A stretch of 64,000 bases of DNA from Candidatus Thorarchaeota archaeon. Lineage in GTDB: Archaea > Asgardarchaeota > Heimdallarchaeia > Hodarchaeales > Hodarchaeaceae. Under the pieces are notes generated by a model that was not told the DNA's origin, made no database searches, and saw only the letters and a list, made by a program, of their open reading frames with translations. The position numbers were made by a program, and so were the translations under genes. Where the stretch lies: contig JBHLRO010000003.1 of the NCBI GenBank assembly GCA_048882505.1, positions 15,157 through 79,156 on the forward strand, written 5' to 3'. Below are positions 11,352 through 38,715 of the stretch, piece after piece; positions within the stretch are counted from its first letter, which is position 1; each line of letters begins with the position of its first letter.

Positions 11352-12431
11352 TCAAACTTCATCTAATCCCCCCCATGAACTGACAAATTCCCACAAGGTC
11401 TTATAGAGATTTGCAAAGACAGTTAGGTAAGCTACTTCGAATCCATGACTGTTCTTCCGAATATGCCCAATACAAGCGGTTTGAGGACTAGCACCAATGC
11501 TCCCTACTTGACCTGCATCACTCCCACTTGTAGTATAGACAAGGTGTTGAAGCTCAGTACCTACATTTTTCGCCGCATCAGACAATGCCTGGTTCAACTT
11601 GGGGCTGTAGAAATATCCCCGATCACGAACCCTAATTCCAGGTCTATCATCTAGCTCCGTAGGTGATTCAGATGCGATTGGACAACCGTCCACAGCAATG
11701 AAGTAGGTCGGAGTTAGTGATTGTGCCAAGTGTTTTGCTCCAAAGCAACCGATCTCCTCTCTGGTCGTAAATGCAATTATAAGATTCACAACTGGAGTAA
11801 CGTTCTTTGTTTTTAGGGTTTTTAATATTTGGAGTAGAATAGCGACCCCTATTTTATCATCGAATGTCCACGCCCCTATCATTGGATTTGATTCTTCTCC
11901 AAAAAATATGGGCCCTCTTTCCGATTGACTCAGAGTAATCAGAGTTCCAGGTTTAACGCCATAACCTTTCAAACTTTCGGGAGGCAATCCAGTGATAACA
12001 GCAGTTTCTCTCCACTCTAATTTCTGTGTACCACCTGCGGCGTGTCCTGATCCCATCGCCGTAACACCAGAAATCGTCGCATTATCACCAAAGACGTCAA
12101 CTGGACGTTCCCCATATTTCCATGTTAATGATCCTCCTATCCTCTCAACTCCTAGTGTACCATCACCATTAATTTTTGTTACCATTAATCCGATTTCATC
12201 TGTATGTGATGCCAAACAACAAGTTTCCTCACTTTGCTTCTTGCCTGGTATTTGAACATAGACATTCCCTGCCGAATCCTTCTGGGGATTATATCCCCAC
12301 TCATTACACTTTCGGTAAATGTGATCAGCTATCTTGTCTTCCATTCCCGAAGGAGAAGGAATAGTAAGCAATTCGGTGAATTGTTGGATTATTGCGCTCT
12401 GCTTGATCTGCTCATATCTACTAGATTCCAT
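11352..12431 (-). CDS. M42-family metallo-aminopeptidase paralog
   Basis: 359 aa; SHTDEIGLMV, FDDKIGVA, TTREEIGCFGA motifs paralogous to 9138..10217. Confidence 0.7.
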   Translation of the reverse strand: MESSRYEQIKQSAIIQQFTELLTIPSPSGMEDKIADHIYRKCNEWGYNPQKDSAGNVYVQIPGKKQSEETCCLASHTDEIGLMVTKINGDGTLGVERIGGSLTWKYGERPVDVFGDNATISGVTAMGSGHAAGGTQKLEWRETAVITGLPPESLKGYGVKPGTLITLSQSERGPIFFGEESNPMIGAWTFDDKIGVAILLQILKTLKTKNVTPVVNLIIAFTTREEIGCFGAKHLAQSLTPTYFIAVDGCPIASESPTELDDRPGIRVRDRGYFYSPKLNQALSDAAKNVGTELQHLVYTTSGSDAGQVGSIGASPQTACIGHIRKNSHGFEVAYLTVFANLYKTLWEFVSSWGGLDEV

Positions 12432-12509
12432 GGTATCACATCACTAGGAAGAAAAAAAAGGATATGAATAAAAAAAACTCCCTTTAGTACCGATCCATAT
12501 TGTTAATAA

Positions 12510-13994
12510 TTGCCTATTCTCTCTACAGGTGTTAGCTGGATGAAAACCGACCAGATCGGGATAACTAAAGATTTTATTGAACGTCTTGAAGTTCTAATAA
12601 GTGACGAGATGGTACGTTATAAAGTACCTGGAGCAAGTATCGCAATTGTCAAGAAAGACGAGATTATATATCATCAGAGCTTTGGAGCAAGAGACCTAGA
12701 AAAGAATCTCCCTGTTACTCCATCTACATTATTTAATATTGCCAGTGTAACAAAATCAATTATCTGTTTAGGTATTATGAAGCTTGAGGAACTTGGAAAA
12801 TTAGAACGCCACGATCCAATTTCCAAATACATTCCCTGCAAACTGGGATTTCCAGATAATCCCATTACGATCCATCATCTTATGACCCATACCTCTGGGA
12901 TTCCCGAGATCGTCGGAGGGATAGCGCATTTGGATTTGGCGATGGAGGTAAACGTTGAAACCCCCTTTATCCCCTTTATGAATTGGAATGATTTTTTCAG
13001 ACATATCAACGGGGCCGGTGATTATGTAAGTGAGAAACCAGGGAATCGATTCTATTACCAGAATTACGGTTACACCATGCTAGGACGTATTATCGAAGTT
13101 GTTTCAGGCCAGGATTTACCTGAATTCATCAAAAAACATATTCTTGCTCCTCTCCAGATGAGTGAATCGACCTTCGAAAAGGATCAGCTGAATAAGTTAG
13201 AAAATGTCTCATCAGCATACAAAATGTCAGAACGAGAAGGCCGAATAGTGAAAACTTCCTATTATCGCGAGAATGAGATTTTCGGGTACGCACCAGGGGG
13301 ACTATTCAGTTCAGTTATTGAGCTAGCTAACCTTTTAATCATGTACTTGCATCGTGGTGAGTTTCACGGCCGTAAACTAGTCAGTAGTGACAGAATCGAT
13401 ACAATGACTTCTATGCACTGGCAAGAGAAACCAAATTCAATGTCATATAGTAGTACAATCGGTGACTTCGGGGATTCGGGGTATGGATACGGATTAGCAA
13501 TCCATGAGAATTTCTATGGTCATAAGATAGTTCATCATTCAGGTAGCTGGATTGGCGCTAGTGCTTGGCTCGCGATGCTTCCTGATTTAAAACTAGGTAT
13601 TGTATTTTTATCGAATAAACATCCTAGTCCTAGGATGATGGCTTTAAGCGCGCTGGCTATGCTCCTGGGAAGAGATCTCAATGAAGAATTCCCGCTGTTC
13701 CGTCACAGGAATCACATAGAGAAACTTGCTGGAGAATATGAACTCTATAAGGGGGTAGGTAAAATGAAATTAGCAGTTAAAGGAGGACTCTTGTATTATC
13801 AGTACGATTATTGGGGGATTAACGCACCTTTGATTCCACGAGAAAGACCCGAAAAGAATTCAGTGACCTTGAACTATTATCTGCTGACAGAGGTTGGGGC
13901 CAAAGATCCAGTGGAATTTGAGATCGATGAAAACGGAACCATATGGATGCATCATGAACGATTAAAATGGAAAAAAGTGAGGGATCTTGAATAG
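12510..13994 (+). CDS. beta-lactamase-fold serine hydrolase (S12/class C-like esterase or peptidase)
   Basis: S-x-x-K motif IASVTKSI near the N-terminus; YxN-like and HSGSW motifs; about 490 aa, typical of the family. Confidence 0.7.
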   Translation: MPILSTGVSWMKTDQIGITKDFIERLEVLISDEMVRYKVPGASIAIVKKDEIIYHQSFGARDLEKNLPVTPSTLFNIASVTKSIICLGIMKLEELGKLERHDPISKYIPCKLGFPDNPITIHHLMTHTSGIPEIVGGIAHLDLAMEVNVETPFIPFMNWNDFFRHINGAGDYVSEKPGNRFYYQNYGYTMLGRIIEVVSGQDLPEFIKKHILAPLQMSESTFEKDQLNKLENVSSAYKMSEREGRIVKTSYYRENEIFGYAPGGLFSSVIELANLLIMYLHRGEFHGRKLVSSDRIDTMTSMHWQEKPNSMSYSSTIGDFGDSGYGYGLAIHENFYGHKIVHHSGSWIGASAWLAMLPDLKLGIVFLSNKHPSPRMMALSALAMLLGRDLNEEFPLFRHRNHIEKLAGEYELYKGVGKMKLAVKGGLLYYQYDYWGINAPLIPRERPEKNSVTLNYYLLTEVGAKDPVEFEIDENGTIWMHHERLKWKKVRDLE

Positions 13995-14237
13995 ATGTTG
14001 ATTCTGAATTTGAAGGAAAGTTTTCTTCAGATAGGTTGAGAATTGGCTGGTTTTAGAGAGAAACTATATTTCATGCAGAACCAAGATCACCCTCAATGGT
14101 TTATTCAATCCACAATCGTTGCCTTGTCATTACACGTAATTTCTCATCAGCTGTTCCAAGCACTGTGAAAAGGATTTATCATTAACCGGGACATTTCAAG
14201 GAGAACCAATAAGAAAAGGTTCTGAGAGGTTCTCTAA

Positions 14238-15107
14238 ATGAAGATCCCAATTAAAGCAATCTTACAAATCCAATTAATATTAATTCTGGTTTTATTATTC
14301 AGTTTTTACAATCGGATTGAACTGGCCAAGGGAAAAACTATCTCATCCCATCATAATCCCATTCTATTTGTTCACGGATGGAATAGAGACAGTTCAGATT
14401 TCGCGCCTATGATCGATTGGTTCAAGTCCGATGGCTGGACCAGCACAGCCCTTTATGCGAATAATTTTGACGATAGGAGCAATTGTTCAGTTCAGACCAA
14501 TATTAACAATGCAAATAGGATAAAGCAATGGGTTACCGATATTTTAGCCGAAACTGGTGCTAAAAAAATCGATATAGTCGGTCATAGTATGGGGGGCTTG
14601 AATAGCAGATATTATATTAAATTTCTGGGTGGGACAGATTATGTGGATGATTATGTGAGCTTGGGAAGTCCCCAACATGGAGAAAATGTTGCGGCATGTG
14701 GTGAACAGGGAGTAAATGATCTTGCCGTGATTTTAAACGAAGGAGATGAAACCCCAGGAGGGATTTTGAGTGATATTGTTGGACCCCGTGTGGATCCATT
14801 TTCCGGAATAATTTACAACGGTACACATATTCCTGGTAATATTTCCTACACGTCTATTTTTAGCAAGGCCGATGTAATTCCATATGTTTCTCCTCCTCTT
14901 GATGGAGGGGATAATGTTGAAGTTGAAGGTTTAACTCATTTTCAGTTATATCAATCAGAGTCCGTATATACGATAGTTAAAGATGCGGTTGATGATACTC
15001 GGGAAACCACAACAAATGATACAACAAGTTGGACATTTTTACCGATTCTAATCGCTTTATTTCCCATCATATGGATAAAACGAGAATTAAGACGTTTATC
15101 CTCCTGA
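14238..15107 (+). CDS. secreted alpha/beta-hydrolase lipase/esterase (lipase class 2-like) with C-terminal membrane anchor
   Basis: N-terminal signal/TM segment, nucleophile elbow GHSMGG, Thr-rich linker then hydrophobic helix FLPILIALFPIIWI followed by KRELRRLSS. Confidence 0.6.
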   Translation: MKIPIKAILQIQLILILVLLFSFYNRIELAKGKTISSHHNPILFVHGWNRDSSDFAPMIDWFKSDGWTSTALYANNFDDRSNCSVQTNINNANRIKQWVTDILAETGAKKIDIVGHSMGGLNSRYYIKFLGGTDYVDDYVSLGSPQHGENVAACGEQGVNDLAVILNEGDETPGGILSDIVGPRVDPFSGIIYNGTHIPGNISYTSIFSKADVIPYVSPPLDGGDNVEVEGLTHFQLYQSESVYTIVKDAVDDTRETTTNDTTSWTFLPILIALFPIIWIKRELRRLSS

Positions 15108-15121
15108 AAGAATGGTAAAAC

Positions 15122-15478
15122 TCAACCAACTTTTTTGGATTCTAAGCTGACCTCAACGGCTCTATCAATCCAAACTTGTAATGTCTCCTTATCATTCATA
15201 ATTTCTTCTGGGAGTGTCCAATAGGACATGGCAATTTTTTTCCCCTTTCGTTCGTATATAAAGGGATGAGTATCATATAATTTAAAATCAGCCCTATTTT
15301 TCGATCCTACTTTGAAAAATAGTTCGCCATCAACGATAATTGCGAATATCACCTGGTTTTTGTAGATACCATATCCCCCAAACATTGCTTTGTATGTGAT
15401 ACCCTCAAAATCTTTGAAGACATCGTTAATGATGTAATCTAGATATTCCTTTGCCAATAAATCACCGATCAAGGTCAT
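15122..15478 (-). CDS. TfoX N-terminal domain protein
   Basis: 118 aa; YKAMFGGYGIYKNQVIFAIIVDGELFFKV matches the TfoX/Sxy N-terminal domain signature. Confidence 0.5.
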   Translation of the reverse strand: MTLIGDLLAKEYLDYIINDVFKDFEGITYKAMFGGYGIYKNQVIFAIIVDGELFFKVGSKNRADFKLYDTHPFIYERKGKKIAMSYWTLPEEIMNDKETLQVWIDRAVEVSLESKKVG

Positions 15479-16161
15479 GTAAAATAATTCTATAAAATGT
15501 AGATGCGAATTATCTTAGGCGCACGTAATAATCCAGGATTATTCAGGAATTGTTATCTGAAAATTCGTTTGTTCTTCAAACTACTTATCGTTGCTGGAAC
15601 GTATTAGAAAGTTTTCAAGCTTCTAGATGAATGATATGAAAAAAATTCTGCTGGATATCGGATGTCATGGCCGCTTTAAAGAGACTATTATATAGATCAT
15701 AATAATCCCTAATATGATTGGTTTTTCGATCGGCATCATAATGGGAGGAGAATCTTATATCCATAACGAATCAATAATGTTTAATCATGAAAGAAGTTAC
15801 GAGACCGAATCCTTTCCTGCTTTGGATGAAATCATAATCGCTGCAAAGCATACAAATACGGAGATTGTTAATCTCACAGTATTCACACAGCAGGCCGACA
15901 CGGTTTTTTATTAGGAATTTAAATTGAAATCAGGAGAGAGTATATCAAGTGATAATGAATATATTTTGGCCCATGTAGACAGTTCTCTGTCAGAAATTAC
16001 CATTCTTGGTTGTTCTGGGCCTCAAGGGGTAGTAATTTCCATCAAAGGTCAAAGTAAAAATGGATTTACCATACTTCAGGATTTTGAAATTCCGATGCAA
16101 AAAAATGCCATGTTTGCAGCCTATTTATCCTCGGTGATTTAATTCCATTATTACAGCCCTC

Positions 16162-16902
16162 TTATCTGACGTTTGTTTTCAATTTTTTTATATGAAATAG
16201 GCTACAAGAAATTTGGTCGTATTTTCCATCTTCTTCATCAATACTCATGCACTCTTCAAAGGAACGTAACGCACTCCCATAATCCCCCTGATAAAAATAT
16301 GTGACCCCGATCACATGCCAAGAGTAACTTTCCAGATACCGAAATCCTGCCTCCTTTGCCAGTGCAAACGCCCGAGCCAAATATGATATCGATTGATCCA
16401 GCTCACCCCGTGACCGATGCATGAGCCCCAAGGGTGAAAGAGACTCCGCAATCTGAAATTCATCCTCCACCTCCTTCGCAGCTGCTAGCGATTTACGTGA
16501 AAACACTAGAGCTTGCTTGAGATCTCCTAAGGTCCAACAAACCCTGGCTTTTACATCATATAAGAGACATTCCCATTCCTTTCCATCTTGTATCGTGCCC
16601 AGTAAATCCTGTCCCTTTTCAAGCAACTCAGCGGCTTCAGTAACCTTCCCAAGACGGTAGAAGGCATAACTCTTCATCACTACTGCCCCCAGTTCGTGGT
16701 ATCTATCCCTTACCACTTTATTCTTTTGCTGAACTACATTTGCCACGGACACTGCCTGCTCGTACTCTTCCTGCAGAATGTAAATCCGACTTTTGAGTAG
16801 TAATCCCAGTGATCCCGCTTTTGCGTCTAATCCTTCAATCTGTGCCAGGGTTTCCTCATATTTGGCCTGATAGATTAGGTCACGGATAGTCTGAATCCTC
16901 AT
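16162..16902 (-). CDS. TPR-repeat protein
   Basis: 246 aa with repeated 34-residue helical units (W/L-G-Y-A-F-P pattern); motif-level call. Confidence 0.55.
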   Translation of the reverse strand: MRIQTIRDLIYQAKYEETLAQIEGLDAKAGSLGLLLKSRIYILQEEYEQAVSVANVVQQKNKVVRDRYHELGAVVMKSYAFYRLGKVTEAAELLEKGQDLLGTIQDGKEWECLLYDVKARVCWTLGDLKQALVFSRKSLAAAKEVEDEFQIAESLSPLGLMHRSRGELDQSISYLARAFALAKEAGFRYLESYSWHVIGVTYFYQGDYGSALRSFEECMSIDEEDGKYDQISCSLFHIKKLKTNVR

Positions 16903-16947
16903 CCTTACATATCCTCAATCTTAGATGGAATAAAACCACCTCATGAT

Positions 16948-17091
16948 TTATGAGTTTCTCTTGAAATTCGTAGCTATCACCGCAAAGTCGTCTATCTCCT
17001 CACTACCAACGGCGTAACACTCGGCTACAGCTTTAAAGACCTCGATACCTAGGCCAAAAAATTGAATCTCGCCCAAAGCTAACCCTGCCAT
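16948..17091 (-). CDS. possible small ORF (47 aa) embedded in repeat copy 1
   Basis: ATG at 17091..17089, reads MAGLALGEIQFFGLGIEVFKAVAECYAVGSEEIDDFAVIATNFKRNS; a degenerate startless copy of the peptide (GIEVFKAVDECYPFGSEGID) lies in repeat copy 2. Below the track length cutoff. Confidence 0.2.
   Translation of the reverse strand: MAGLALGEIQFFGLGIEVFKAVAECYAVGSEEIDDFAVIATNFKRNS
16987..17070. repeat. direct repeat copy 1 (about 84 bp, about 85% identical to copy at 18562..18645)
   Basis: gtcgtctatctcctcactaccaacggcgtaacactcggctacagctttaaagacctcgatacctaggccaaaaaattgaatct aligns with copy 2 with a few mismatches. Confidence 0.6.
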
Positions 17092-17182
17092 TTTCCCTTT
17101 TCATTTTTCATCGATATTTTTATAAGAAAGAATGCCTGGAAAATAATACCACCGATTCCATTCGTTCTCATTATAATTCATT

Positions 17183-18448
17183 TTGAAGAGACGTAGCATG
17201 ACAGCTTTTACGGATAGAATGCGGATTAATCTCTCCACAATGATTCTAACTATGCTTACACTCATTTTTGGGGTCCGAGGAACTCAGATCTTTCCTATTA
17301 GGAATCCAGATTTAATTCCAACGATTACACTCTTTGATATCCTTTCATTCATCTTATTAGGTGTTTTCATTAGTTATTCACTAATTATCGGGTATAATCG
17401 GCTCCTTTTGGTCTTATTGACATGCTCTCCTTTGTTTGGATTCGTTATCATCCCTTTCTCACTCATTTATTTCCCCGTATACGACCCAATTCGTCCATTT
17501 CTGATCGGTTTATTTCTAATATCTGCCAGTCTAATCGCAGTTCTGGTAATTTGTTGGTATAAATTCCAGAAGGAATTATTTGCATTTTATGATTCTATAT
17601 CATCAGAGAGAGTGAAAAAGCTTTCATTAAAGCAATATTATTGGTTATTACTGCTAATTATCAGTTTATTGGGGATTTTCCCGCTTTTGATCGTTCTTGT
17701 CCCATTCATGATCATGTCTTTCTTCTTTCAGTTCCTTTCTGCCGATAAGAGTGCTCTTTCTTTTTTTTTCTTAGTCCTTACTTCAGCCGTCCTCGCTTAC
17801 CTCGTTATTTCACGCCTGAGGTCATTAGGTGAACACCGCTCGTTCTGGGATCCCATAGTTCTCCGGAAACCCTTTTTAGATGTTATTCTTGTCATGAGTC
17901 TGATCACACTTGTCGGACTGTCTTTACTCGCTCCTAGATTGCTTTATAACAGCATTCAGTATCGATATGATAGCTCCCCTGAAATAATTGAATTCTATCA
18001 AAACCTTGAAATCTCGGACTATTTTGGCGATGTCCCGGCATTCGCTAATGATTCCTGGAGGGGAATGGGACCAAATTATCTTGGATTCACAGAACGGGCA
18101 CTTCTCGTACAAAAAATCCTCACCTCCGATTATAAGATTAGCACTGAGATAATTTATAGTCTATCCATTCCTTTTTGGTTCTCTCACGAAACAATCCTTG
18201 ATTTCGCGGGGCCTTCTTTCTATTATAACTATCTTTATTGGAATCACTCATTGATTTTCCTAGAAGACACCCTTTCAACTCGCCTTGGAACCTTTACTCA
18301 ACCTGGGGAAAATATCCACGTTATTAGAGAAACCATCTATCTCAAACGGCCTTTCATGACAATAAGTTTCAATCAAGTTATTGCTTTCTTCCCAAACAAT
18401 AATTCAATTTCTTTGATCCTTTCTGGGTATCGAATTTCCGTGGTATGA
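17183..18448 (+). CDS. polytopic membrane protein with C-terminal soluble domain, unknown function
   Basis: 421 aa; about 7 N-terminal hydrophobic helices then about 180 aa soluble region; flanked by the direct repeats. Confidence 0.45.
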   Translation: MKRRSMTAFTDRMRINLSTMILTMLTLIFGVRGTQIFPIRNPDLIPTITLFDILSFILLGVFISYSLIIGYNRLLLVLLTCSPLFGFVIIPFSLIYFPVYDPIRPFLIGLFLISASLIAVLVICWYKFQKELFAFYDSISSERVKKLSLKQYYWLLLLIISLLGIFPLLIVLVPFMIMSFFFQFLSADKSALSFFFLVLTSAVLAYLVISRLRSLGEHRSFWDPIVLRKPFLDVILVMSLITLVGLSLLAPRLLYNSIQYRYDSSPEIIEFYQNLEISDYFGDVPAFANDSWRGMGPNYLGFTERALLVQKILTSDYKISTEIIYSLSIPFWFSHETILDFAGPSFYYNYLYWNHSLIFLEDTLSTRLGTFTQPGENIHVIRETIYLKRPFMTISFNQVIAFFPNNNSISLILSGYRISVV

Positions 18449-18561
18449 CTAACCTTAATGAGGAGTCAGGATACTAGCCCTCGCTTCTTATCAAAACGTC
18501 TGAAACATTTAAAACAACACGGCCTCATTTTTCGCACCCATTTCACTGAAATCCCCCCCTA

Positions 18562-18645
18562 GTTCGTCTATTCCCTCACTACCAAAGGGGTAACACTCGT
18601 CCACAGCTTTAAAGACCTCGATACCTGCGCCAAAAAGTGGAATCT
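18562..18645. repeat. direct repeat copy 2
   Basis: gttcgtctattccctcactaccaaaggggtaacactcgtccacagctttaaagacctcgatacctgcgccaaaaagtggaatct; same orientation as copy 1. Confidence 0.6.
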
Positions 18646-18754
18646 TAATCCCTCTTGATCTTCCTCTTATACCTTCCTTTTCTCCCTATTTCCCGTCAAA
18701 TTCCTTCCTTTCTTACGACCGCTAATTTTGCTCTCCGTGATTTTCGAGCAATCA

Positions 18755-18979
18755 CTACACATATGCATGTACGCCCAAACTCATTACCATGATTCTCAGG
18801 ATTACCAAACCAGTTAAAAGTTCACCAGAAGCCAATTCGGTGACTCCAATAACTAACCCTCCAATGAGAAAAAGCATCGTGAAAATATAAAACCATTTAT
18901 CTTCCCCTATTACTTCCCTTAGAGTTCGCTTCCTACTCAATTTCTCTTCACAATTATCTGGAATCATTATCCAAATCAA
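18755..18979 (-). CDS. small membrane protein (hypothetical)
   Basis: 74 aa ORF with one or two hydrophobic helices; ends in TAG; no family recognised. Confidence 0.3.
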   Translation of the reverse strand: MIWIMIPDNCEEKLSRKRTLREVIGEDKWFYIFTMLFLIGGLVIGVTELASGELLTGLVILRIMVMSLGVHAYV

Positions 18980-19079
18980 AGATATCTGAAAAACTGTAAT
19001 GAAAAGATATGATGTTGTGGCGCGGAGTCAATATTTTGTCCACGACATAGCGATTTCCCTTCTGCAAGCTACACTTTCC

Positions 19080-19352
19080 TTATCCGACCAAGGCACTCAG
19101 CTCTGCATACACTCGCTCAACCTCCTCCTTTGAGGGCATGTACTCCTCATGTGCCACCCTGTTACGCAATTGGTTAAGCCATTTGAAGAAACCTTGCTTC
19201 TCGAATAACCCATATTGGGCCACCTTCCGCTCTAGCTCCAGCATAAACTTCCCCTCTATCCCCAAAAGCTTCCTCACCGTTGCATGCGCATAGTGCACAA
19301 ATGCATGCCGATATACTAAGTTTTCTCCTTTTGCCCCTTCATAGCTTTCCAC
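19080..19352 (-). CDS. HEPN-domain protein (HepT/DUF86-like, tentative)
   Basis: C-terminal LRNRVAHEEY fits the R-x4-H-x-Y HEPN motif; about 90 aa; GTG start; lies in frame 5 codons after the TAG stop of 19368..19895. Confidence 0.4.
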   Translation of the reverse strand: MESYEGAKGENLVYRHAFVHYAHATVRKLLGIEGKFMLELERKVAQYGLFEKQGFFKWLNQLRNRVAHEEYMPSKEEVERVYAELSALVG

Positions 19353-19367
19353 AGCCAGCTCCCAGAC

Positions 19368-19895
19368 CTAGTCAACCCCTTCTTCTCTTCGCCGCGTAGC
19401 CTCATCCCCTGTTCCCGTGACGGGTTGTTTAACAGGTTTTGTCTTCTTTCTAGAGGCCCCACTCTCTTGTGGTCTCTCATGTCGTGGTACTGGACTGGAG
19501 GTCGATTCCATTCCTGGTTCCCCCTCTATCCCTGGTGGATGGTCCAATCTTACCTGTAAACGGGCTTTTAGCTGCTCCATTAGCTCCCTAAGATGAGTAT
19601 CAGAGGGGTGTATACCCTGTGCCTGTTGAAGAAAAAACGTCGCCTTGAATAGCTCATTCTCCTTTACAAACATCTCAACTAATCGCACCCACGTCCCTAC
19701 ATTTCTTGGATCCCATTGGACTGCCTCCATGAACGTTTGAAAGGCCGCCCGCTCATTTCTCTCTTCTTTCATAATGTGTGCCCGCAAGATCCAAAAATCC
19801 ACCAGAAGTGAATCGTTCCCATTACTTAACTGCCTCAGCGTAGCAATTATCGTTGAATCCACTTTCGGACTCTCTCCCGCCAACACCTTTTCCAC
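19368..19895 (-). CDS. helical (TPR-like) protein with disordered Pro/Glu/basic-rich C-terminus
   Basis: 175 aa; N-terminal helical repeats, C-terminal low-complexity tail; terminates with TAG at 19370..19368; G+C about 50%, above window background. Confidence 0.4.
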   Translation of the reverse strand: MEKVLAGESPKVDSTIIATLRQLSNGNDSLLVDFWILRAHIMKEERNERAAFQTFMEAVQWDPRNVGTWVRLVEMFVKENELFKATFFLQQAQGIHPSDTHLRELMEQLKARLQVRLDHPPGIEGEPGMESTSSPVPRHERPQESGASRKKTKPVKQPVTGTGDEATRRREEGVD

Positions 19896-20189
19896 TAGTG
19901 TGACAATTCGGCTCCATTGGGATGATCCTCCAGACTGGTAGCAAATTCTGTCACCAAATCTCCAGCTTTCTGTGTCCTTTCCATGGTTGGGTAGGCCTCC
20001 ACACGCTTACTAGGTCAAGAATGATCAGGAAGGTTCATGCAAACCCATTCACTACTTCTCCATCCTCTTTCCTCTATATATCCTCCAAGGATTTCTGTTT
20101 ACCAGTCACGGTTAGTAGAAATTTTCCCTCACGGGTTTTTCTCGAAATAACCCGAAAAATCTCAGAACCAATGACTTGACGGAGCGCAA

Positions 20190-20837
20190 TCACCCATGGC
20201 TGCGGACAATGTCTTTCATTCGCGCTACATATTCGTTCAATCGGACGGCCTTCATCCGCTCGTGGATAGATGCTCCTTTTGCAACTAATTCTTCCGATTT
20301 TTCCAAAATTTCCTTGAGTGTAGTTTGATCATCCATCACCTTTTCCGCTACCTTCTTCAAATTGTGTTCTTTTGTGATTCCCTCGGCCTGCTCCAGAAGA
20401 GTATCTGTTCGTGTTATATTTCCTCGGATCAAGGCAAATCGTGAAAGAAGAAGTAACGCCTCCACCGCCGAGGAGAACGATTTCTGTTCCTGAGCAATCC
20501 TGTGAATTTCGGCCAACAAATCCTCGGCATCAGTTAACACCTCTGGTTCTCCATAGAGCGATAATTCGTCCATTAATAATTCACACAGATTCACCATGGC
20601 GTAGATCGAGAGATCGTGCAATATTATCTCTTCTTGCATGATTTCTTCAAGTAATCGTTGCGCCGCCGTCTTATCTTTTAAGCGACAACCGTTTTTCCGC
20701 ACCAAGGCATCTGCTAGCTGCTGGCGTAAATCGATATACCTGTTGTTAGACCCCTCGCTGCTCTTCAATTCCTCCAGTTTTTTTAGATAAACCTGCGCTT
20801 CATCTCTTTTTCCCATCTCCAGACTAGTGAGAACCAT
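20190..20837 (-). CDS. helical repeat protein homologous to the C-terminal third of TPR protein 46500..48062
   Basis: NLCELLMDELSLYGEPEVL...ALLLLSRFALIRGNITRTDTLLEQAEGITKEHNLKKV aligns with NLGELLVFELKATGNEEVF...YLLQSRLALLELDIENAEKLLTQAEVLSQEKGLKKL of the 520-aa protein. Confidence 0.5.
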   Translation of the reverse strand: MVLTSLEMGKRDEAQVYLKKLEELKSSEGSNNRYIDLRQQLADALVRKNGCRLKDKTAAQRLLEEIMQEEIILHDLSIYAMVNLCELLMDELSLYGEPEVLTDAEDLLAEIHRIAQEQKSFSSAVEALLLLSRFALIRGNITRTDTLLEQAEGITKEHNLKKVAEKVMDDQTTLKEILEKSEELVAKGASIHERMKAVRLNEYVARMKDIVRSHG

Positions 20838-21224
20838 ATGAGAATTAACCGACTGTATAAAAGCCGTTCTGGTAAAAGATTACTGCGTTAAACTGGGATA
20901 CCCCTAATCTATCTTGCAAACTGGTTATTTTTGCCTATTCCTCCTTTCGACCATTGCCTCAAGGACCGTGCAGAGAAATCAAACTTGGTTGGAGGAGTTC
21001 TTAACCATAGGATTCACCTTTTCCAGCACAGCGATTCTTCTCTGTTTCTTCTTACGCCTTTGGAGCTGATAACCTGTAGTAATCAGGTAATCGTGAAACT
21101 GTTGTCAATTCTTCCGTTAGCTCTCAGTTTTCTACTCTCTGGAGTGATTACGCTTGTCCTTGGAATTTAGTATCATATTCCCCCTCGTGACGCACAGGAC
21201 ACTGTGACATAGAAAAAAGGAAAT

Positions 21225-21482
21225 TCAGGCGGTTTTCTCTTCTTGCAGCATTATCACTTTATTTAACGTCTCTAAGAACTCATCCAGCGGAACTCGATGA
21301 ACGCGAGCGGCTCGTTCCACAGTCAAGGCTTTTGTTAAAAGTCTGCGAATGGAGTACCTTCCAACACGTTTGATTCCGAATACCTCCATCACGTCAGCGA
21401 TGTCTCCGTACTTCTTCAAAATGTCTGCCACTCGAGTATCTTTAGTAATTTCCACACGAATCAATCCTTTCGTAAGAGTCAT
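21225..21482 (-). CDS. DUF1858-like small protein (ScdA N-terminal-like domain, tentative)
   Basis: 85 aa; ITKDTRVADILKKYGDIADVMEVFGIKRV...ERAARVHRVPLDEFLETLNK resembles the DUF1858 pattern, though the usual Cys pair is absent. Confidence 0.4.
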   Translation of the reverse strand: MTLTKGLIRVEITKDTRVADILKKYGDIADVMEVFGIKRVGRYSIRRLLTKALTVERAARVHRVPLDEFLETLNKVIMLQEEKTA

Positions 21483-21651
21483 TGAATACTCTGGGAGTTA
21501 TTAATTTAGTCCGCAGTTATTCGTAGTCTTCAGAAAGGAAAGGATCCACGATGAATTACTGCTTTGAATGCATTGGGACTCACTCGGATTGTTCGAAAGT
21601 GATAAAAGAATCAGAATCAGTCTGAATTAATCTGATTAATATTCCTCGTCT

Positions 21652-22761
21652 CTAATCTGAAATTGAAATGATCCTATGCTGAGGAAGAAAGGAAAAGTGT
21701 TTCCTGATGAGCGGATCTGCTTTGGCATATATGCTAATGTTGGCTGAATCTAAATCAGATCCAAACTCCCTCACAAATTGCCTGGTAAATTCCTTCAAAG
21801 CTGAGCGTAATAACAAAGATACCCTATCAGCTATCAAAAATGTCACAATCTTTTGATCAGTCTCAAAAAGAAAGATATAATTGTCAGTCTTAATGGATTG
21901 TATCTTTTCGGTTCTATCAATCACTGATTGGACAAACTGCACGTTTGCGGTCATAAGATGGGGGATTAAGATATTAACATCGGGACCCTGTTTCTTGGTG
22001 TCAAAGAGAGCATCAAATATTGAAAGCCCCATATTCATGTTCATAACCGATAATCGATATACATTGAAGGGCAAGATTCGGAGTACTCGCGCGTCAAGGA
22101 CAATAGCTAAGATAACAAACAGAACTCCCATTGCTAAGGCAAATATTTCAATCCCCCAAATAGTAAGCGAGATTTTGGTAGCTATCAGAATGGCTGGAAC
22201 CAAAATGGGAAAAATACAACCTAAAAAGAACAGTATTGAGGCTCTACTGTAATCCTGCGGAATATAAGGGATAAAACGGCTGATTTGGTAGATAACAATA
22301 AGAGTTAGTAATAACATTTCAACAACCAGGATCGTACGCGGGAAATCCGCGAAATACGGCCCTATCCCTGGATCCCAAAGAAAAGATTCTGGCTGGATAG
22401 CCAATATGATGCTCATTCCGACACCAAAAGTAACCGCTGTGATAAGAATACTATATGGTTTGTCAGCCCGTAAGAGTTCAATAAACAAAACAAGCAGAAA
22501 ACACAACAGAATAAGAATAATCACGCCAGCGCGATAGAGGATTAGGGATAGTTGGAATTCAATATTGGCGATTGTGTATAACAAGGTGTGAAGTAGAAAA
22601 TAAGGTACAAGCAAGAGGTGAATTATGGTTAGAATAATAAGCGGGCGAGATCTTGATGAACGATAAACGGAGAGGGTTAAATAAAATCCCAATAATGTAA
22701 GCAAGAGAGAAATAAACGCTAATATGGTATACTGCAGTTGATTAGCGGTTAAAGGGCTCAT
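21652..22761 (-). CDS. polytopic membrane protein with cytoplasmic C-terminal domain (possible sensor/receptor)
   Basis: 369 aa; about 7 hydrophobic helices then about 130 aa soluble domain; no family recognised. Confidence 0.45.
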   Translation of the reverse strand: MSPLTANQLQYTILAFISLLLTLLGFYLTLSVYRSSRSRPLIILTIIHLLLVPYFLLHTLLYTIANIEFQLSLILYRAGVIILILLCFLLVLFIELLRADKPYSILITAVTFGVGMSIILAIQPESFLWDPGIGPYFADFPRTILVVEMLLLTLIVIYQISRFIPYIPQDYSRASILFFLGCIFPILVPAILIATKISLTIWGIEIFALAMGVLFVILAIVLDARVLRILPFNVYRLSVMNMNMGLSIFDALFDTKKQGPDVNILIPHLMTANVQFVQSVIDRTEKIQSIKTDNYIFLFETDQKIVTFLIADRVSLLLRSALKEFTRQFVREFGSDLDSANISIYAKADPLIRKHFSFLPQHRIISISD

Positions 22762-23204
22762 ATGGTTAAGGAAAAGTTCTACTGATATTTTAACCTACTG
22801 AAATAATTTACACCCGTAATCGGTGAAATTGATGTTAAAATGGATCTAGGTTTCCCCAGCGAAAATAGATATCTCGCTCATTGATTACTCCACCAACAGG
22901 GTTACGGGCATATTGAAACCTTTGGTTTCATCTAATTGCTTGCTTCTTACTTCGGGTCAGGGACGATGACATTTCTTAAGAGGACAAGAATGAACCTATC
23001 TCTTTCTGATCAGTAATCTTAGAAAGGGCCTTTTCATCAATATTATCTCCGCTACGGGATTTGTTAAAAACCAGATCGTTCTGCCTCTGATTTGTCAGGA
23101 ACCCAACAGATAATGCTACAGCACCCTGATAGAGGATAAATTCTAAGATATCATTTTTTAATATTGGTTTAAGCTCGTATCGACGCTTAAGGAGACCAAC
23201 CAAC

Positions 23205-24509
23205 GTGAAATATGAGTCATCGTTTATTAAAAAGATAAAGGATAAGATCAAGGATCTTCAAAGCCAAGGTCAAAACAATGAAATTCCTTCTGCGGTCTCA
23301 GAGTTTTGGAATATTGTACAATCTTCGGATTACCCAATCATTGAAAAATTTGAGGATGTAGACATAGCCAGCCATAATACGGAATATAATATCGTCACCT
23401 TTTTATATCAAACAAGTAAGGATGTTGATAATGTATTTCTGTTGGCGGAGTTCAACTTTATTGATCCAAAAGATTATTTATTTGAGCACATTGATGGAAC
23501 TGACATTTTTTATAAGACGTTCGTGCTTCCAAAAGGTGTACAAGCGGAGTATAGGATCTTTGAAAATGATCCGCTCGATGGTATCTTTGCTGGGGCTAAA
23601 TATCAAAACCGTTTGGAGAGGTTTCACGAACACCCAGATAAATTAAGCAGACATGTTCGACGGATTCCTAATGGGTATATGGGAAAAAAGGACCTTTTTA
23701 TTGCCAGCTTGCGTTCTTTTCACCCCGAAATCTCCGATTTCGTGAAGAACAGTGATCACCAGAATGGCAAAATCTCGACCTCTAAGCAGGAAAGTAGAAT
23801 CCTTGGATATTCTAGAACAATAAGTCTCTATACTCCGGCTCATTATGACCCCAAGGCAGTCTACCAGTTCATATTCATACATGATGGAAGTGCTGCTTTG
23901 AGTTATGGCGAAACACACCATCTACTTGATTATTTGATTGCTTCAAGAGTAATTCCTCCCATTGTTGGAATTTTTGCTGATCCTGGAGTAAAAAATGGAA
24001 AAACAACGCGAAATGAGGAATATCCATGCAATCCGGACTATGCTCAATCAATTACTCAGGAAATTCTTCCTTGGGTCCGCAAAAACATCAGTATTAGCAG
24101 TGACCCAAACGATGGAATCATCGCGGGCTCTAGTTACGGCGGATTAGCATCCTTCTATTACAGTTTCATGTACCCCGAATGCATTGCGAATGTTCTATCT
24201 CTATCAGGATCCTTCCACTGGGGAAAGCCAAATGAGGACTACCCTTATGAGTGGCTGCCCCGAAAAATCGCCTTCTCCGAAAAGAAAGCATTAAAGGCAT
24301 ATATGGAGGTGGGGAAACTCGAGGGGGAGTATCATTGGAATAGCCCTGGATTTCCCAACCAGATCGTAAGCCATAGACATTTCGTTACCATTTTGAAAAT
24401 GAAAGGGTATTCCTACAAGTACAATGAATTCAATGGTGATCACAGTCCCTCTTCCTGGATAAAACCTTTGGAAAGGGGATTACGGTATTTTTTGGCCAAA
24501 GAACTTTGA
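23205..24509 (+). CDS. esterase, enterochelin-esterase/esterase-D-like alpha/beta hydrolase
   Basis: Nucleophile elbow AGSSYGGLAS; downstream Asp and His-containing segments; about 200 aa N-terminal domain as in enterochelin esterase-like proteins. Confidence 0.6.
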   Translation: MKYESSFIKKIKDKIKDLQSQGQNNEIPSAVSEFWNIVQSSDYPIIEKFEDVDIASHNTEYNIVTFLYQTSKDVDNVFLLAEFNFIDPKDYLFEHIDGTDIFYKTFVLPKGVQAEYRIFENDPLDGIFAGAKYQNRLERFHEHPDKLSRHVRRIPNGYMGKKDLFIASLRSFHPEISDFVKNSDHQNGKISTSKQESRILGYSRTISLYTPAHYDPKAVYQFIFIHDGSAALSYGETHHLLDYLIASRVIPPIVGIFADPGVKNGKTTRNEEYPCNPDYAQSITQEILPWVRKNISISSDPNDGIIAGSSYGGLASFYYSFMYPECIANVLSLSGSFHWGKPNEDYPYEWLPRKIAFSEKKALKAYMEVGKLEGEYHWNSPGFPNQIVSHRHFVTILKMKGYSYKYNEFNGDHSPSSWIKPLERGLRYFLAKEL

Positions 24510-24787
24510 GAATTACCCATTCCCGAAAAATCTCAATCAAATAATTGGAATTTGCCTCGATTATGCCGTAACATTGACCTTAAGTGTAGGATTTGTTGAA
24601 GAATGGAGGAATGACCTAGTAGGATTGAAAGGATAGCAAATCGTCTCCAAATCCATTCTTTTGGGAGGATTATAAGACAGGATGAGCCCAACTTCGAGAA
24701 TCCCTCTTTAGAATCCGAGAAACGATAACCGATATAGTTACCTATATATGCAGTTATAGATCGCACGCCGCATCGAGATGAAATCCC

Positions 24788-25141
24788 TTGCTAGATGATC
24801 TCCTCCTATCAAAATGGCAAACGGAGTATAAAAAAGGGTTTTCTAAACCCCTCATTCTATTCACGCTTGCCAAAATCGGGAGTAGTTATGCGTATCTTCT
24901 TACGAAGAAGATCTTGGAATTAACAAATGGAGAAATCTCAATTGCGGGTTCTAATATATATCCTATGCTTTCCAAACTTGAAGAGGACAGGTTGATTGTC
25001 AGTCAAAAAGACGAGAATGACAGAAAATACTACAAACTGAGTGATGCCGGTAGAGAATTTTTAGAACAGTTGGAACTCTCGATCAAAGAGTTCAATGAGA
25101 TAATGCTTGGATTAACCAAGAAGAATGAAGGAGATCTCTAA
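24788..25141 (+). CDS. PadR-family wHTH transcriptional regulator
   Basis: 117 aa; YAYLLTKKILELTNGEISIAGSNIYPMLSKLEEDRLIVSQK...KYYKLSDAG matches PadR winged helix. Confidence 0.65.
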   Translation: MLDDLLLSKWQTEYKKGFSKPLILFTLAKIGSSYAYLLTKKILELTNGEISIAGSNIYPMLSKLEEDRLIVSQKDENDRKYYKLSDAGREFLEQLELSIKEFNEIMLGLTKKNEGDL

Positions 25142-25817
25142 GAAAATGGCCCAACAGAAGGCATTAGATCCTATTGATGGTTATTTACAGGAGGTAAGTG
25201 CCTTACTTCCCTACTCCGAGGAAAGAAAAGCTTCAATCCTTGAAGAACTAAAAAAGGATGTGGAAGATGCAATGAGAACTGAAAAACGTCCTCCTTCTGT
25301 CGTTTTTGGATCCCCCACCGAAGTAGCTAAGAATCTGAGTATCGCAAATGATTGGGGAACTACTTCCGCGAGATGGGGGACACGGCTAGTTGCTTCATTC
25401 ATCGATTACGCCGCGACTCTAGGAGTCTTCATTCTGTTCGTTATCATTCAATGGATTCTATCGGACTTTCAAATCGATGAAATAAGATGGAATTCAATGC
25501 ACATCCCGTTCGGTTTACTCTTTATAGGTATTCCAATAATAGGTTTGCTTTTGAGTTATTTTATTATTCTCGAAAAAACATATTCCACAACCCTCGGGAA
25601 ACGGATATTGGGTCTCATAGTTGTCGATGAATCGGGAATTAAAATCACTTGGACTCAATCTCTAATTCGTAACTTCACCAAAGTTCCTTTTCTGACATCT
25701 TTTTTGCCAGCAGACATCATATTTGGAATAATATCAGAAAAAACCCGTGGTAGGAAGCAGCGAGTTTTAGATTTTGTCGCAGGAACCAAAGTAATGCAAC
25801 AAAAAGAACAGATATAA
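25125..25817 (+). CDS. RDD-family membrane protein
   Basis: RLVASFIDYAA then 3 hydrophobic helices; overlaps PadR gene end by 17 nt (operon). Confidence 0.5.
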   Translation: MKEISKKMAQQKALDPIDGYLQEVSALLPYSEERKASILEELKKDVEDAMRTEKRPPSVVFGSPTEVAKNLSIANDWGTTSARWGTRLVASFIDYAATLGVFILFVIIQWILSDFQIDEIRWNSMHIPFGLLFIGIPIIGLLLSYFIILEKTYSTTLGKRILGLIVVDESGIKITWTQSLIRNFTKVPFLTSFLPADIIFGIISEKTRGRKQRVLDFVAGTKVMQQKEQI

Positions 25818-25827
25818 GGGTGTTTTC

Positions 25828-28800
25828 ATGGGATTCCGATCGAGTTTACTTATAGCTAAAAGAGCATTAACACGAAGAAAAGCGAAGAATATCAGTGCCA
25901 TCCTTGCCATTACGTTAGGCGTAACGTTGATGGTTGGAATTCAGATAACGACAGATACTTTGGAGAACTCTTTTCTAACTGGATTACTTCTTGATGAAGG
26001 GGAAGTGGACATTCGAGTTGGAAACGGAACGGGGAATTACCTACCTATGGAATTTCAGAATAATATCTCTGAGTTAGTTCCAGACGGAAAGGTAATGCCC
26101 GAGTTGACATCGCGAGGTGCTGTAATGGCGGGTTCTCAGTTTGAAGACTCCGTTCAATTTGCAGGGATTCCCTCCGAATATCCAGAGATCTTTGGGGACT
26201 TTTATGATTGGAACACACAAGAAAAAATGAACATTAGCGATTACTTAACTGATAATACAAGTGTTTTGCTATCAAGCAACTTGGCTGAGGATTTGGATAT
26301 AGAAAAAGATAGTCAACTGCCGATAACCTTGGTTACAGAGTTTAATAACCAGACAATCATTTTACTGCCAAATGGCACGGGTCCCCCCATTCCAACCCCG
26401 ATTTTTACTGTCGAACAGGTTAATCTTTCTGTTGTTGGTCTATATGACTCTAATAGGCCAGGGATTGGAGCGCAATATACTGGTCTTTTAATGTCCCTAA
26501 AAGGCCTTCAAGATTGGCTAAGTCTTCAGGATTTTTCTCGAAATTCAAATTTGGTTAGCTCCTATCTAATATCCTTTCAATCTGATCACTTTAATACCCG
26601 TATTGACCCTGATTTCCTACAGGACCAGCTGGATTTTTTAAATGAAACTCTACCTATCGGTCTTGTTAATGGAGAGACTCAACAGTTATACGCGGCATCA
26701 TCTCCCCGTTTACTCTTTACAGAAATTATCGATCTTGTTTTCAGCTTCATGTCTACCTTTTTAAATGTTTTAGGTCTACTAATAGTACTCACTGGAGTAT
26801 TACTGATAACAAATGTTCAATTAATGAGTGTTGAAGACCGAGAGTTTCAAACTGGCGTATTACGAGCTGTGGGGGAAAAAAGGAGAGGAATTTTCGTTTC
26901 TATGCTTTCTGAAACTCTTTTTCAAGGTATTTTCGGCGGAATAATTGGATTGGTTGGAGGATTGATTTTTGGTCAAGTAGTGGCCCTTTATATTGCCAGT
27001 CTTTTTGAAACAGGACAGTTTAGCGTGCGACCAGTCATAAATCAAACCATTATCGTTTTCTCGGTCCTCATTGGGGTCGCCCTCGGTATTCTTACTGGCC
27101 TTCTCCCAGCCTTACGGGCCTCGCGTGTAAATGTCGTAGAAGCTCTTCGAGGTATTAAAATCCAATTTGAAGAGAAATCTGGTAGAAACTTGGTATTATT
27201 AAGTTTACTGCTGGTAATCGTTGGAGCACTCATTCTTTTAATAAATGGAGTTTTCGATGATAGTTTACAGTATATTTGGGAAATTAAAGGTTGGGATTCA
27301 TTGGACGAATGGAGGAATATTCTCCTTGGATCCGCAATTCTCTTTTCCGGCCTTGGCATCATTCTATCTAGCTTTATTGACCGAATCAAGGCCTTTAATT
27401 TAACAGCACTAGTGATTTGGGCAGCGCCTGTTTTTTTGTTTGTTGTGGCAATGGGAGAAGGTTGGATTGCTGAATTTTCAGGTGGTCCATTTAATATCGA
27501 TGTTTTTATCATTGCGATAATAGAGGTGGTAGTTGGATCAGTATTAATCGTCGGCCTTAATTTGTCTCCATTGATGAGATTCTTACGTAGAGTGCTTATG
27601 CGAATAAGTGGGGTCAAGGGAGTGGCGCAGGTAGCACCTGCTCTTATCTCATCACATAAGACACGTTCAACTCTAACATTCGCAATCTTTGCGGTAGTTC
27701 TCACTCTTAATGTTGTAGTTGCAGCTCTTGTAGCAACCAATCTTTCTAGCTCCATAGGGCAAGCTGAGACGGACTCTCGTGGTATAGATTTATTCGTCTC
27801 ACTTAATAAGCCTGAAGTAGTATTAAACGATACTTCATATACAAAACTACTATTTAATGTTTCCGATAGCATAACTGATGTCATAGGAATGAAAACTTTT
27901 AAAACACGAACGGATTTCACGAAATTTGTAGCCTTGAAAAAGCCTGGGTCAGTTGGGTATAATCCGTCGACCGACCATCTTCCCCTCGAATTTGTAGAAT
28001 TACGGTCAGATCAAATCAGAGGGAACGCCACTAGCGCTGAAGAGGAAAACTGGAGATACGATAGCTTCTTAGGGAGTTTTCCTGATGGTGTAGGTGAACT
28101 ATCTTCCTCCTCTGGAGGTTTCTTCGGTCCTGGCTTCGGTGGTCAGTCTGACGATGTAGAAGCATTGGAACTCTCAAAAAAAGCATTTGATGCTTTCTTT
28201 AATTCTTCTTATACCATGGCTGCATATAATGTATCGTTCTCATTGTCCTCTCTGAGCGATTTTGACATCGAAGACTTCTCATCTTTTTTTGAATCGGATT
28301 TAGAAGATGTAGAAAAATTAGAGGATGAAAATGGATCAATAATTAAAAATCCGATCATTTTTACCGATTCCCTAATCCTCCCACTAGGAATGCAGATTTT
28401 TGTGCCTATGAATATAACGTTTAATCCCTCGACTAATAGAACAGAAATTGTTTATCAACCGTTCACAATTGGTGGGAAGTTTGACCGAGAACGAACCGTG
28501 GGATTTGCTCTTTCAGGTGGTGGCTTTTCTACAAGAGCTATAGGAGATGGAGACGATCAATCAAACTTTTTAGGGAGAATCTATATTCCTGACCGGTTTT
28601 CGAACTATACGAATTTTTTTGGTGAAGCTGGAGGAGCTTCCTACTCTTCAAGAAAACCAAATCAATTTGACACCTTTCTTATTAAAACCTCCTATGCGTT
28701 TGATGATCCAAGGATAGAGGAACTTGCTATCAAAATCGAGAATTTCACAAATACTGAGGATGCCGGATATCGAAAATTGGCTAGTGATGACTTTCTAGTT

Positions 28801-38701: not shown

Positions 38702-38715
38702 ATGTCTATTTAATT

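Follow-up and report, generated by a model that had tools for sequence, protein, structure and literature searches.

A discrete piece of acquired DNA, 4646 bp long, interrupts a membrane-protein gene in a 64,000-nucleotide (nt) stretch of an Asgard archaeal chromosome and is missing from the same site in a close relative. The stretch, hereafter the window, is part of a 277-kb contig in a metagenome-assembled genome (MAG) labelled Candidatus Thorarchaeota (proteins MFW98542xx, locus tags ACFFFG_). The insert is a permuted copy of an ordinary chromosomal locus that encodes an HxlR protein, a 452-amino-acid (aa) TPR protein (TPR452) and a 301-aa TPR-HEPN protein, and its TPR452 gene is divided between the two ends. 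The arrangement is probably the footprint of a 4646-bp DNA circle that underwent one recombination with the chromosome inside a decaying gene. In kind this is a known event, the circle-mediated illegitimate insertion of chromosomal DNA, and not a new molecular system.

The limits of the insert are given by comparison with the relative, MAG GCA_048881705.1 (labelled Heimdallarchaeota), which has ~85% nucleotide identity to the window and keeps synteny on either side of the site (loci L001-L003). Its genes run from an esterase through mem369 and DUF1858 to a membrane protein of 327 aa, encoded on the other strand, and then to TfoX and a lipase. In blastn alignments, window 11373-16193 corresponds to L001 16800-11968 and window 20838-26000 to L001 11969-6763. 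Since the flanks are adjacent in the relative, the window holds ~4.6 kb of extra DNA within the 327-aa gene. The same empty site occurs in L002 and L003, and the flanks are contiguous, with an intact 327-aa open reading frame (ORF), across all three contigs of the relative's lineage. A preliminary description of the window, made from its letters alone, had placed an acquired island at 18450-21500; this comparison moves the limits to 16196-20841. The DUF1858 gene (21225-21482), which had been counted as part of that island, does carry the domain (Pfam PF08984, E=6e-13, 49 bits against a cut-off of 32.2) but lies outside the insert and is syntenic core, occupying the same place in L001-L003 with 90% aa identity and a synonymous distance (dS) of 0.27. 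Flanking orthologues of the two genomes differ by dS of mostly 0.27-0.63 (PadR, 1.05), with ratios of nonsynonymous to synonymous distance (dN/dS) of 0.03-0.21.

The insert is unlikely to be a product of assembly. In a separate Logan assembly of run SRR30758835, L006 (8308 bp) reproduces window 12996-21303, both junctions included, at 100% identity, so that two assemblers returned the same sequence there. A chimeric contig could be suspected because both sequences compared are MAGs and the NCBI and Logan assemblies may share reads; however, the junctions have only 6 nt in common, an overlap too short to mislead k-mer assembly into a chimera, and the insert is just 78% identical to this genome's native copy of the locus. 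The reverse polarity, a precise deletion in the relative, is opposed by the relative's ORF, which three contigs from different runs show uninterrupted at the site, and by the fact that a permuted duplicate of another locus cannot be ancestral. Artefact or deletion is thus scarcely credible.

The geometry of the insert is revealed by two ORFs at its opposite ends, TPR246 and TPR215 (Table 1). Joined at the TCATAT hexamer that stands at both junctions, they form one frame, free of lesions in all 452 codons, that encodes a protein of 452 aa. Along 100% of its sequence, this fused protein shares 78-80% identity with two intact 452-aa proteins, P0015 (78%), which is the TPR452 of the relative, and P0035, and it is 70% identical to the 488-aa P0016. 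Because intact homologues read through the join, the end ORFs are halves of one gene, and the donor sequence held the hexamer. In each of these homologues (the relative's in L004, this genome's native one in L009, and that in L005) the sequence at the join is ...QISCSLFHMVLTSLE...; the three genes share SCSLFHMVLTSLE there, and their DNA at the join is CTATTTCA(C/T)ATGGTTCTC. The left junction runs AATTCTCATAT/GGTTCTC, at which the ATG of TPR215 is created, and the right junction runs CTATTTCATAT/AAAAAAATTG. A coexisting circle or an intact donor gene would be marked, at the level of reads, by CTATTTCATATGGTTCTCACTAG together with insert-specific single-nucleotide polymorphisms.

The order of the two halves can also be read from a 520-aa TPR protein encoded elsewhere in the window (TPR520, 46500-48062, minus strand). 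TPR215 matches its residues 314-491 (32% identity, E=6e-24), which confirms the earlier statement that a protein here is homologous to the C-terminal third of TPR520, and TPR246 matches residues 17-247, in the N-terminal half. Therefore, the C-terminal piece lies upstream of the N-terminal piece. A simple split gene, with its N-terminal half upstream of the C-terminal half, is rejected, since the coding-strand order has the C-terminal half first. TPR520 is itself distantly paralogous to the TPR452 family, at 24-32% identity, and has in common with it a MalT-like TPR region and a distinctive non-TPR C-terminal helical region. Among the matches seen, the TPR452 family appears to be confined to Asgard MAGs.

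The locus that was copied is present, intact, in both genomes. In the relative it lies on another contig (L004), where Kelch, HxlR (-), DoxX (+), TPR452 (+), the 301-aa gene (+) and TYW2 (-) are followed by a ribosomal-protein operon. This genome has its own intact copy, with P0035 (452 aa) and P0031 (301 aa, ACFFFG_17350) on a 21-kb contig, and Logan contig L009, from the same run, carries HxlR, DoxX, TPR452 and the 301-aa gene in native order. Expressed in L004 coordinates, the insert reads 7382-8034, 8269-9290, a unique stretch of 386 nt, 5314-5499, the gene for a 421-aa membrane protein (mem421), 5325-5411 and 6602-7387. The 73 nt upstream of TPR246 (16903-16973) are also homologous to the source locus. 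The matches at its two extremes share 6 nt of L004 (7382-7387), and the insert is therefore exactly one unit length, a circular permutation of the locus from HxlR to TPR452 and the TPR-HEPN gene, opened inside TPR452. The TPR452 and TPR-HEPN genes adjoin in both genomes (L004 6675-9286; L009 2090-4114), a pair that is not in PADLOC, and in L004 they adjoin TYW2 and the ribosomal-protein operon.

Table 1. The insert, its parts and the remnants of the interrupted gene, in window coordinates; blastn matches to the relative's source locus (L004) are read in the minus direction.
Feature	Position	Strand	L004 position	Remarks
5' remnant of 327-aa membrane-protein gene	15627..16189	+		tblastn residues 1-166, 68% identity; two in-frame stops
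TPR246	16162..16902	-		Codons 1-237 of 452-aa TPR gene (N-terminal half) plus 9 flank codons; Pfam TPR_12, E=3e-18
Right-junction TCATAT	16190..16195	-		TPR246 continues through it into the flank for 9 codons (IKKLKTNVR, then stop)
Match to source locus	16973-16190	-	6602-7387	TPR452 upstream region and N-terminal half; 78% identity
Inserted DNA, 4646 bp	16196..20841	-		Limits from blastn against the relative; one unit of the proposed circle, one TCATAT copy counted
Match to source locus	17069-16983	-	5325-5411	HxlR 3' end again
HxlR pseudogene fragment, residues 101-132	16984..17079	+		One in-frame stop; repeat copy 1; abuts TPR452 upstream region
mem421 (ACFFFG_04350)	17183..18448	+		421-aa multi-pass membrane protein; low-G+C centre, between HxlR fragments
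HxlR pseudogene fragment, residues 66-132	18455..18655	+		One in-frame stop; holds repeat copy 2
Match to source locus	18656-18471	-	5314-5499	HxlR 3' end
mem74	18755..18979	-		74-aa predicted membrane ORF, in the 386-nt stretch 18690-19075
Broken 301-codon TPR-linker-HEPN gene	19080..19984	-		'TPR' ORF 19368-19895 and 'HEPN' ORF 19080-19352
Match to source locus	19376-19076	-	8990-9290	301-aa gene
Match to source locus	20095-19618	-	8269-8748	301-aa gene
TPR215	20190..20837	-		Codons 238-452 of 452-aa TPR gene (C-terminal half); 'TPR fragment' of the preliminary description
Match to source locus	20841-20189	-	7382-8034	TPR452 C-terminal half; overlaps the N-terminal-half match by 6 nt
Left-junction TCATAT	20836..20841	-		With the next base, G, makes the ATG of TPR215
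3' remnant of 327-aa membrane-protein gene	20842..21206	+		tblastn residues 169-326, 38% identity; stops, gaps, frameshifts

These relations lead to a simple mechanism. The circle would have carried an HxlR fragment, mem421, a second HxlR fragment, TPR452, the TPR-HEPN gene and a small ORF, in effect a rearranged copy of an ordinary chromosomal neighborhood. It would have broken inside TPR452, leaving a permuted copy whose two ends carry the C-terminal and the N-terminal half of that gene, through a single crossover at a short overlap of at most 6 nt, TCATAT, within the palindrome CATATG. With a linear fragment and two crossovers, no permutation would arise. A single exchange between circle and chromosome is favored because the insert has exact unit length and both of its ends meet at one nucleotide position of one gene. 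Since it encodes no recombinase or transposase, integration would have been illegitimate, at the level of microhomology, and the circle comparable to extrachromosomal circular DNA (eccDNA) rather than self-mobilizing. The crossover site falls in the CATATG palindrome of TPR452 (window 20835-20840), and it is conceivable that a restriction-type nuclease linearized the circle there.

The genes of the insert bear on whether the unit might instead be mobile in its own right. Pfam and PADLOC scans of all insert ORFs gave only TPR and weak HEPN matches, and none for mem421 or mem74: no integrase, transposase, recombinase, replication or partition gene was found among them, and no PADLOC defense system beyond a weak generic TPR match. 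The window as a whole contains no tRNA genes or fragments, no Rfam families and no inverted repeat pairs of ≥30 nt. An insertion sequence or transposon is rejected, there being neither a transposase domain nor such inverted repeat pairs. One could still picture the 4.6-kb circle as a genuine small mobile element or mini-plasmid, integrated in trans by an integrase acting on a TCATAT attachment core inside TPR452, with a gene split resembling that of the Sulfolobus spindle-shaped viruses (SSV). Direct repeats at the ends and an in-frame split gene do resemble recombination at an attachment (att) core, and integrated mobile genetic elements (iMGEs) of Asgard archaea include an 11-nt AT-rich att motif and a 2.6-kb circularizable mini-element without an annotated integrase (PMC11529989). 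However, the content and order of the insert are those of a chromosomal locus beside a ribosomal-protein operon in two genomes, its cargo is mostly pseudogenized, and a single insertion is known, with no matches in IMG/VR. We regard such an element as distinctly improbable. As for att repeats, the 6-nt TCATAT is found on both sides here, but the relative's empty site is TCTTATGT. A related possibility, which we consider improbable, is that the unit is a recombinase-less Asgard circle mobilized in trans, bearing the TPR452/TPR-HEPN pair and an AT-rich core inside TPR452, and/or that the lesion-free TPR halves have been kept by selection as separately expressed genes, a case of gene fission by circular permutation.

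Where the circle came from is indicated by the distances among the copies. At the TPR452 locus, the native copy and that of the relative are 87% identical in nucleotides (dS 0.50, dN/dS 0.07), and the insert is 78% identical to both, with dS 1.30 and dN/dS 0.08 to the native copy and dS 1.15 and dN/dS 0.10 to the relative's, dS values above 1 that are near saturation and make the distances rough, a first point against the origin we propose. The insert's 301-aa copy is 61-62% identical to its native and relative counterparts (87% to each other) and 68% identical to P0032, a sequence from the Joint Genome Institute (JGI). The insert copy is the outgroup to the native and relative copies of the same locus, and its synonymous distance from them is more than twice theirs from each other. 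It therefore separated from them earlier than the two genomes did from one another, and purifying selection acted on it for nearly the whole period. The excess of dN over expectation is ~0.012; if the halves are non-functional, this would allow ~1-2% of neutral divergence at most since disruption. Most likely, the gene set was disrupted only recently, after evolving as a functional set, and its fragments presumably no longer function. Because it stands equally far from the native and relative loci, the copy most likely originated in a recent acquisition from another organism, of a third, related Asgard lineage. The earlier suggestion of horizontally acquired DNA is to this extent upheld, by an insertion that the relative lacks and by a copy that is outgroup to both loci, although not by composition, on which it had relied in part.

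The same circle geometry could have arisen within the genome if an old, selected, paralogous HxlR-TPR452-301aa segment had been excised and reinserted, with no horizontal transfer. Asgard genomes are rich in TPR paralogues, as TPR520 illustrates; MAGs are incomplete, and a paralogous locus could have been lost or left unassembled; and no donor lineage was found in public data. Against this, the copy lies equally far from both loci, by more than twice the synonymous distance between the two, so that the paralogue would have to be older than the split of the two genomes, and a second copy turned up neither in the genome of the relative (a weak test, by exact peptide patterns) nor among protein matches. 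An intragenomic source is therefore rather unlikely.

Several further points weigh against a circle transferred from a third lineage. Neither a circular form nor a donor genome was found in the databases searched. Among JGI metagenome contigs, the fused protein found nothing, and an alignment found only generic TPR matches of 23-38% identity; IMG/VR gave no matches to alignments of TPR452 or the 301-aa protein; and a protein database returned no match to the rejoined TPR452 above 80% identity, in a search that was not exhaustive, as the window's own fragments P0002 and P0006 were unlisted. A scan of GTDB genomes with P0015, a weak test by exact peptide patterns, yielded the relative itself and one 33% match only. 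The intact frames of both TPR halves could mean that they are still under selection. The layout of mem421 between two HxlR fragments and the loss of DoxX call for additional events. At the junctions, the relative's empty site, which is not TCATAT, may mean that the ancestral overlap was only 2-3 nt. A pure target-site duplication is rejected, because the donor gene would then lose two codons that intact homologues have, though the event may have included a short one. Finally, the NCBI and Logan assemblies behind the junctions probably share the same reads.

The gene that received the circle was probably dead already, as its remnants, compared with the relative, show a dN/dS of 0.74 and at least four lesions (stops or frameshifts). 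The NCBI and Logan gene calls cut these remnants into small ORFs (66 and 72 aa).

Within the insert, the minus-strand order is TPR215, the TPR175 and HEPN90 ORFs (19895-19080), the 74-aa ORF, repeat 2, mem421, repeat 1 and TPR246. The placing of all island genes on the minus strand had been accurate for the ORFs in 18450-21500; the real insert also has a plus-strand gene, mem421. The 175-aa and 90-aa ORFs lie in one frame and are split by a single TAG (19368-19370), an AAG>TAG nonsense change that replaces a conserved Lys of the 301-aa proteins. A second lesion, a 1-nt deletion, lies at ~19895-19897, and the ATG at 19984 starts a 29-codon piece in a different frame. With the deletion mended and the TAG read through, the gene encodes exactly 301 residues, which align without gaps to the 301-aa proteins P0030, P0031 and P0032.

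The HEPN assignment of the 90-aa ORF is right at the level of fold. An AlphaFold model of the native P0031 (mean predicted local distance difference test score, pLDDT, 72.8) places a domain of TPR-like helices at residues 1-147 and a helical bundle at 202-300, joined by a disordered linker (149-197), and the four- to five-helix up-down bundle of HEPN proteins was found for the 301-aa gene, including the 90-aa ORF. The R-x4-6-H motif of HEPN proteins is conserved: in its form here, LRN[RKA]V.H, the R and N are present in all six sequences and the H in five (Leu in P0032), within the conserved context LRNxVxHExY. The HEPN_RiboL-PSP score, 15.0 bits, is below the gathering threshold of 28.4, and P0031 has no HEPN match in Pfam at E<0.01. 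The 90-aa ORF is nevertheless only the tail of a pseudogenized TPR-HEPN fusion gene. No MNT nucleotidyltransferase stands beside the HEPN gene, whose neighbors are TPR452 and TYW2, or mem74. A HEPN-MNT type II toxin-antitoxin system is accordingly rejected, given a 90-aa ORF that is the TAG-cut tail of a 301-codon gene, no MNT and no PADLOC match. What had been read as toxin-like is a conserved chromosomal gene for a TPR-HEPN fusion, present here in broken form.

The part of the insert around mem421 has a history of its own. The larger HxlR fragment is 73% identical in amino acids to the HxlR of L004 (tblastn, E=3e-27), matches L004 5314-5499 and L009 722-902 in blastn, and is followed by ~31 nt that are still homologous to the native locus. 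Compared with that locus, DoxX and the remaining, 5' part of HxlR are missing, and mem421 stands in their place. This suggests that mem421 was brought in by a separate, older insertion, through recombination within HxlR. Because the two HxlR fragments differ by 12%, the arrangement would seem to predate the insertion of the circle. The family of mem421 is very rare: the protein has no Pfam or PADLOC match and only a self match in a word-indexed search; HMMER found six distant homologues (31-48% identity) among 1.84 billion representatives, and the neighborhood of one of them, P0038 (L010), shows no HxlR or TPR linkage. The 386-nt stretch 18690-19075 has no blastn match to L004 or to the native L009, and the joint that closed the circle must, on this reconstruction, lie within it.

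The island of the preliminary description had been drawn from composition, with an 82-nt repeat as its upstream bound. That repeat exists (16988-17069 and 18564-18645, 88% identity), yet it is the only repeat near the region, and both copies are internal to the insert. As an att-like boundary it is rejected, being formed by the two HxlR pseudogene fragments; a check of the flanks for long att-like repeats or tRNA fragments gave nothing else. The rise in G+C is real and smaller than the ~50% that had been claimed: 18450-21500 has 44.7%, the top value among all 3051-nt windows, against 39.4% outside it (39.6% for the whole window). Values of 0.49-0.51 (up to ~51%) are confined to ~19000-19600; a further G+C-rich patch (0.48-0.49) lies at 16200-16700, and the center of the insert, at 17100-18400, is low (0.33-0.40). 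The true insert has 43.0% G+C against 39.4% in the rest of the window, and its tetranucleotide usage ranks as the most deviant of 201 size-matched windows.

Composition is, however, not diagnostic of foreign origin, because the native locus is equally G+C-rich and equally atypical in tetranucleotides. Measured as tetranucleotide distance from the window background, the insert (0.208) falls between the native locus (0.194) and that of the relative (0.212), whereas ordinary windows average 0.1375 (standard deviation 0.0185). The G+C content of TPR452 is 43.6% in the native copy and 43.5% in the relative's, where the 301-aa gene has 47.0%; the insert copies have 45.3% (TPR452) and 49% (301-aa gene), and codon positions 1 and 2 are likewise raised in G+C for these genes. 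The bias is intrinsic to the genes wherever they are located. A classical G+C-rich island with HEPN, DUF1858 and TPR genes could point to a genuine deviation in G+C and tetranucleotides and to a genuine HEPN fold; with its DUF1858 gene in the syntenic core, its bounding repeat inside the insert, its limits displaced, its composition matched by the native orthologous locus, and its HEPN ORF no more than the end of a disrupted 301-aa gene that has no MNT beside it, it is very improbable. Judged by G+C deviation alone, the boundaries and the rationale would both have been wrong.

Some features lie apart from the insert. A second indel separates the genomes at window 11230-11373 and L001 16800-20117, where ~140 unaligned nt in the window face 3.3 kb in the relative; these 3.3 kb hold two ORFan genes (456 and 444 aa, no Pfam match) between genes for an M42 peptidase and a Ras/Roc GTPase. 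A 300-nt direct repeat of 83% identity (33140-33439 and 38700-38999, 5.56 kb apart) reflects paralogous 272-aa genes at 33208-34026 and 38768-39586 on the plus strand, both with a 2-oxoacid dehydrogenase acyltransferase catalytic domain (Pfam, E ~1e-18 to 1e-19), and in the interval between the two, at 35426-36244, is a GNAT acetyltransferase gene of equal length. The MAGs compared are syntenic and have 85-87% nucleotide identity, yet they are labelled Candidatus Thorarchaeota and Candidatus Heimdallarchaeota, and distant TPR homologues carry Hodarchaeota or Hodarchaeales labels. By sequence, one or both of the two MAG labels must be wrong.

The uptake and fixing of foreign DNA by Asgard archaea bears on models of gene flow around eukaryogenesis. 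Very few such events have been resolved to the nucleotide, and the present case is clean and datable. It suggests that eccDNA-like circles, which in archaea have so far been seen directly only in Methanobrevibacter smithii, can serve as vehicles for the transfer and duplication of Asgard genes. It also gives reason for caution in annotation, since five called "genes" are fragments of two genes.

We know of no comparably resolved circle-mediated insertion in Asgard archaea. In SSV-type integration, the provirus ends up bounded by Int(N) and Int(C), the two parts of its split integrase gene. The present insert is similar in that the site of exchange lies inside the circle's own gene, whose C- and N-terminal parts stand at opposite ends and can be rejoined in frame; it differs in its split gene, which encodes a TPR protein, in the lack of an integrase and in a target other than a tRNA gene. 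The TPR-HEPN protein, in turn, differs from AF0298 (2hsb) and from the HEPN-MNT toxins (5yep, 7ae2, 8xdj) in that a disordered linker ties its HEPN domain to a TPR domain on the N-terminal side, and in having no MNT neighbor. Its motif is RNxVxHExY (H-x2-Y), with Leu for His in one homologue, and the copy in the window is a pseudogene.

The iMGEs of Asgard archaea include Yucahu-i and mini-Yucahu-i of Atabeyarchaeia; Yucahu-i has a tyrosine integrase, a class of integrative and conjugative elements has integration machinery, and an integrase is encoded by the best described of the elements with the 11-nt AT-rich att motif (PMC11529989). The insert resembles these in its Asgard host, its short AT-rich end repeats (which would be single in the circle) and a size within their 1.3-40 kb range. 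Unlike them, it has no mobility gene and no tRNA target, and its content is copied from a housekeeping neighborhood. Aloposons, which are characterized by giant genes, tRNA targets and a ParA-like gene (PMC8813620), are rejected as a model, since none of these is found here.

Two further precedents concern circles of chromosomal DNA. In M. smithii, a 2.9-kb chromosomal eccDNA circle is enriched in extracellular vesicles (bioRxiv 10.1101/2024.06.22.600173). Like it, the circle proposed here is small, made of ordinary archaeal chromosomal genes and bordered inside protein-coding genes, and packaging into vesicles, by analogy with M. smithii, would be a plausible route of transfer between cells. 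There the circle was observed and no reintegration reported, whereas what is seen here is no more than the footprint left by integration, from whose permutation the circle is deduced. In wine yeast, the 17-kb 'region B' of Zygosaccharomyces bailii offers a parallel in logic, as its circular intermediate was likewise inferred from permuted gene order (Galeote et al. 2011, PMC3053389). Both cases involve a foreign chromosomal segment with a permuted gene order, no element-encoded recombinase, and junctions without repeats or with microhomology only. Region B belongs to a eukaryote, has several insertions, spans 17 kb and carries an autonomously replicating sequence on the circle; the present case concerns an archaeon and one insertion of 4.6 kb, with a gene cut in frame at the breakpoint and a cargo most of which is pseudogenized.

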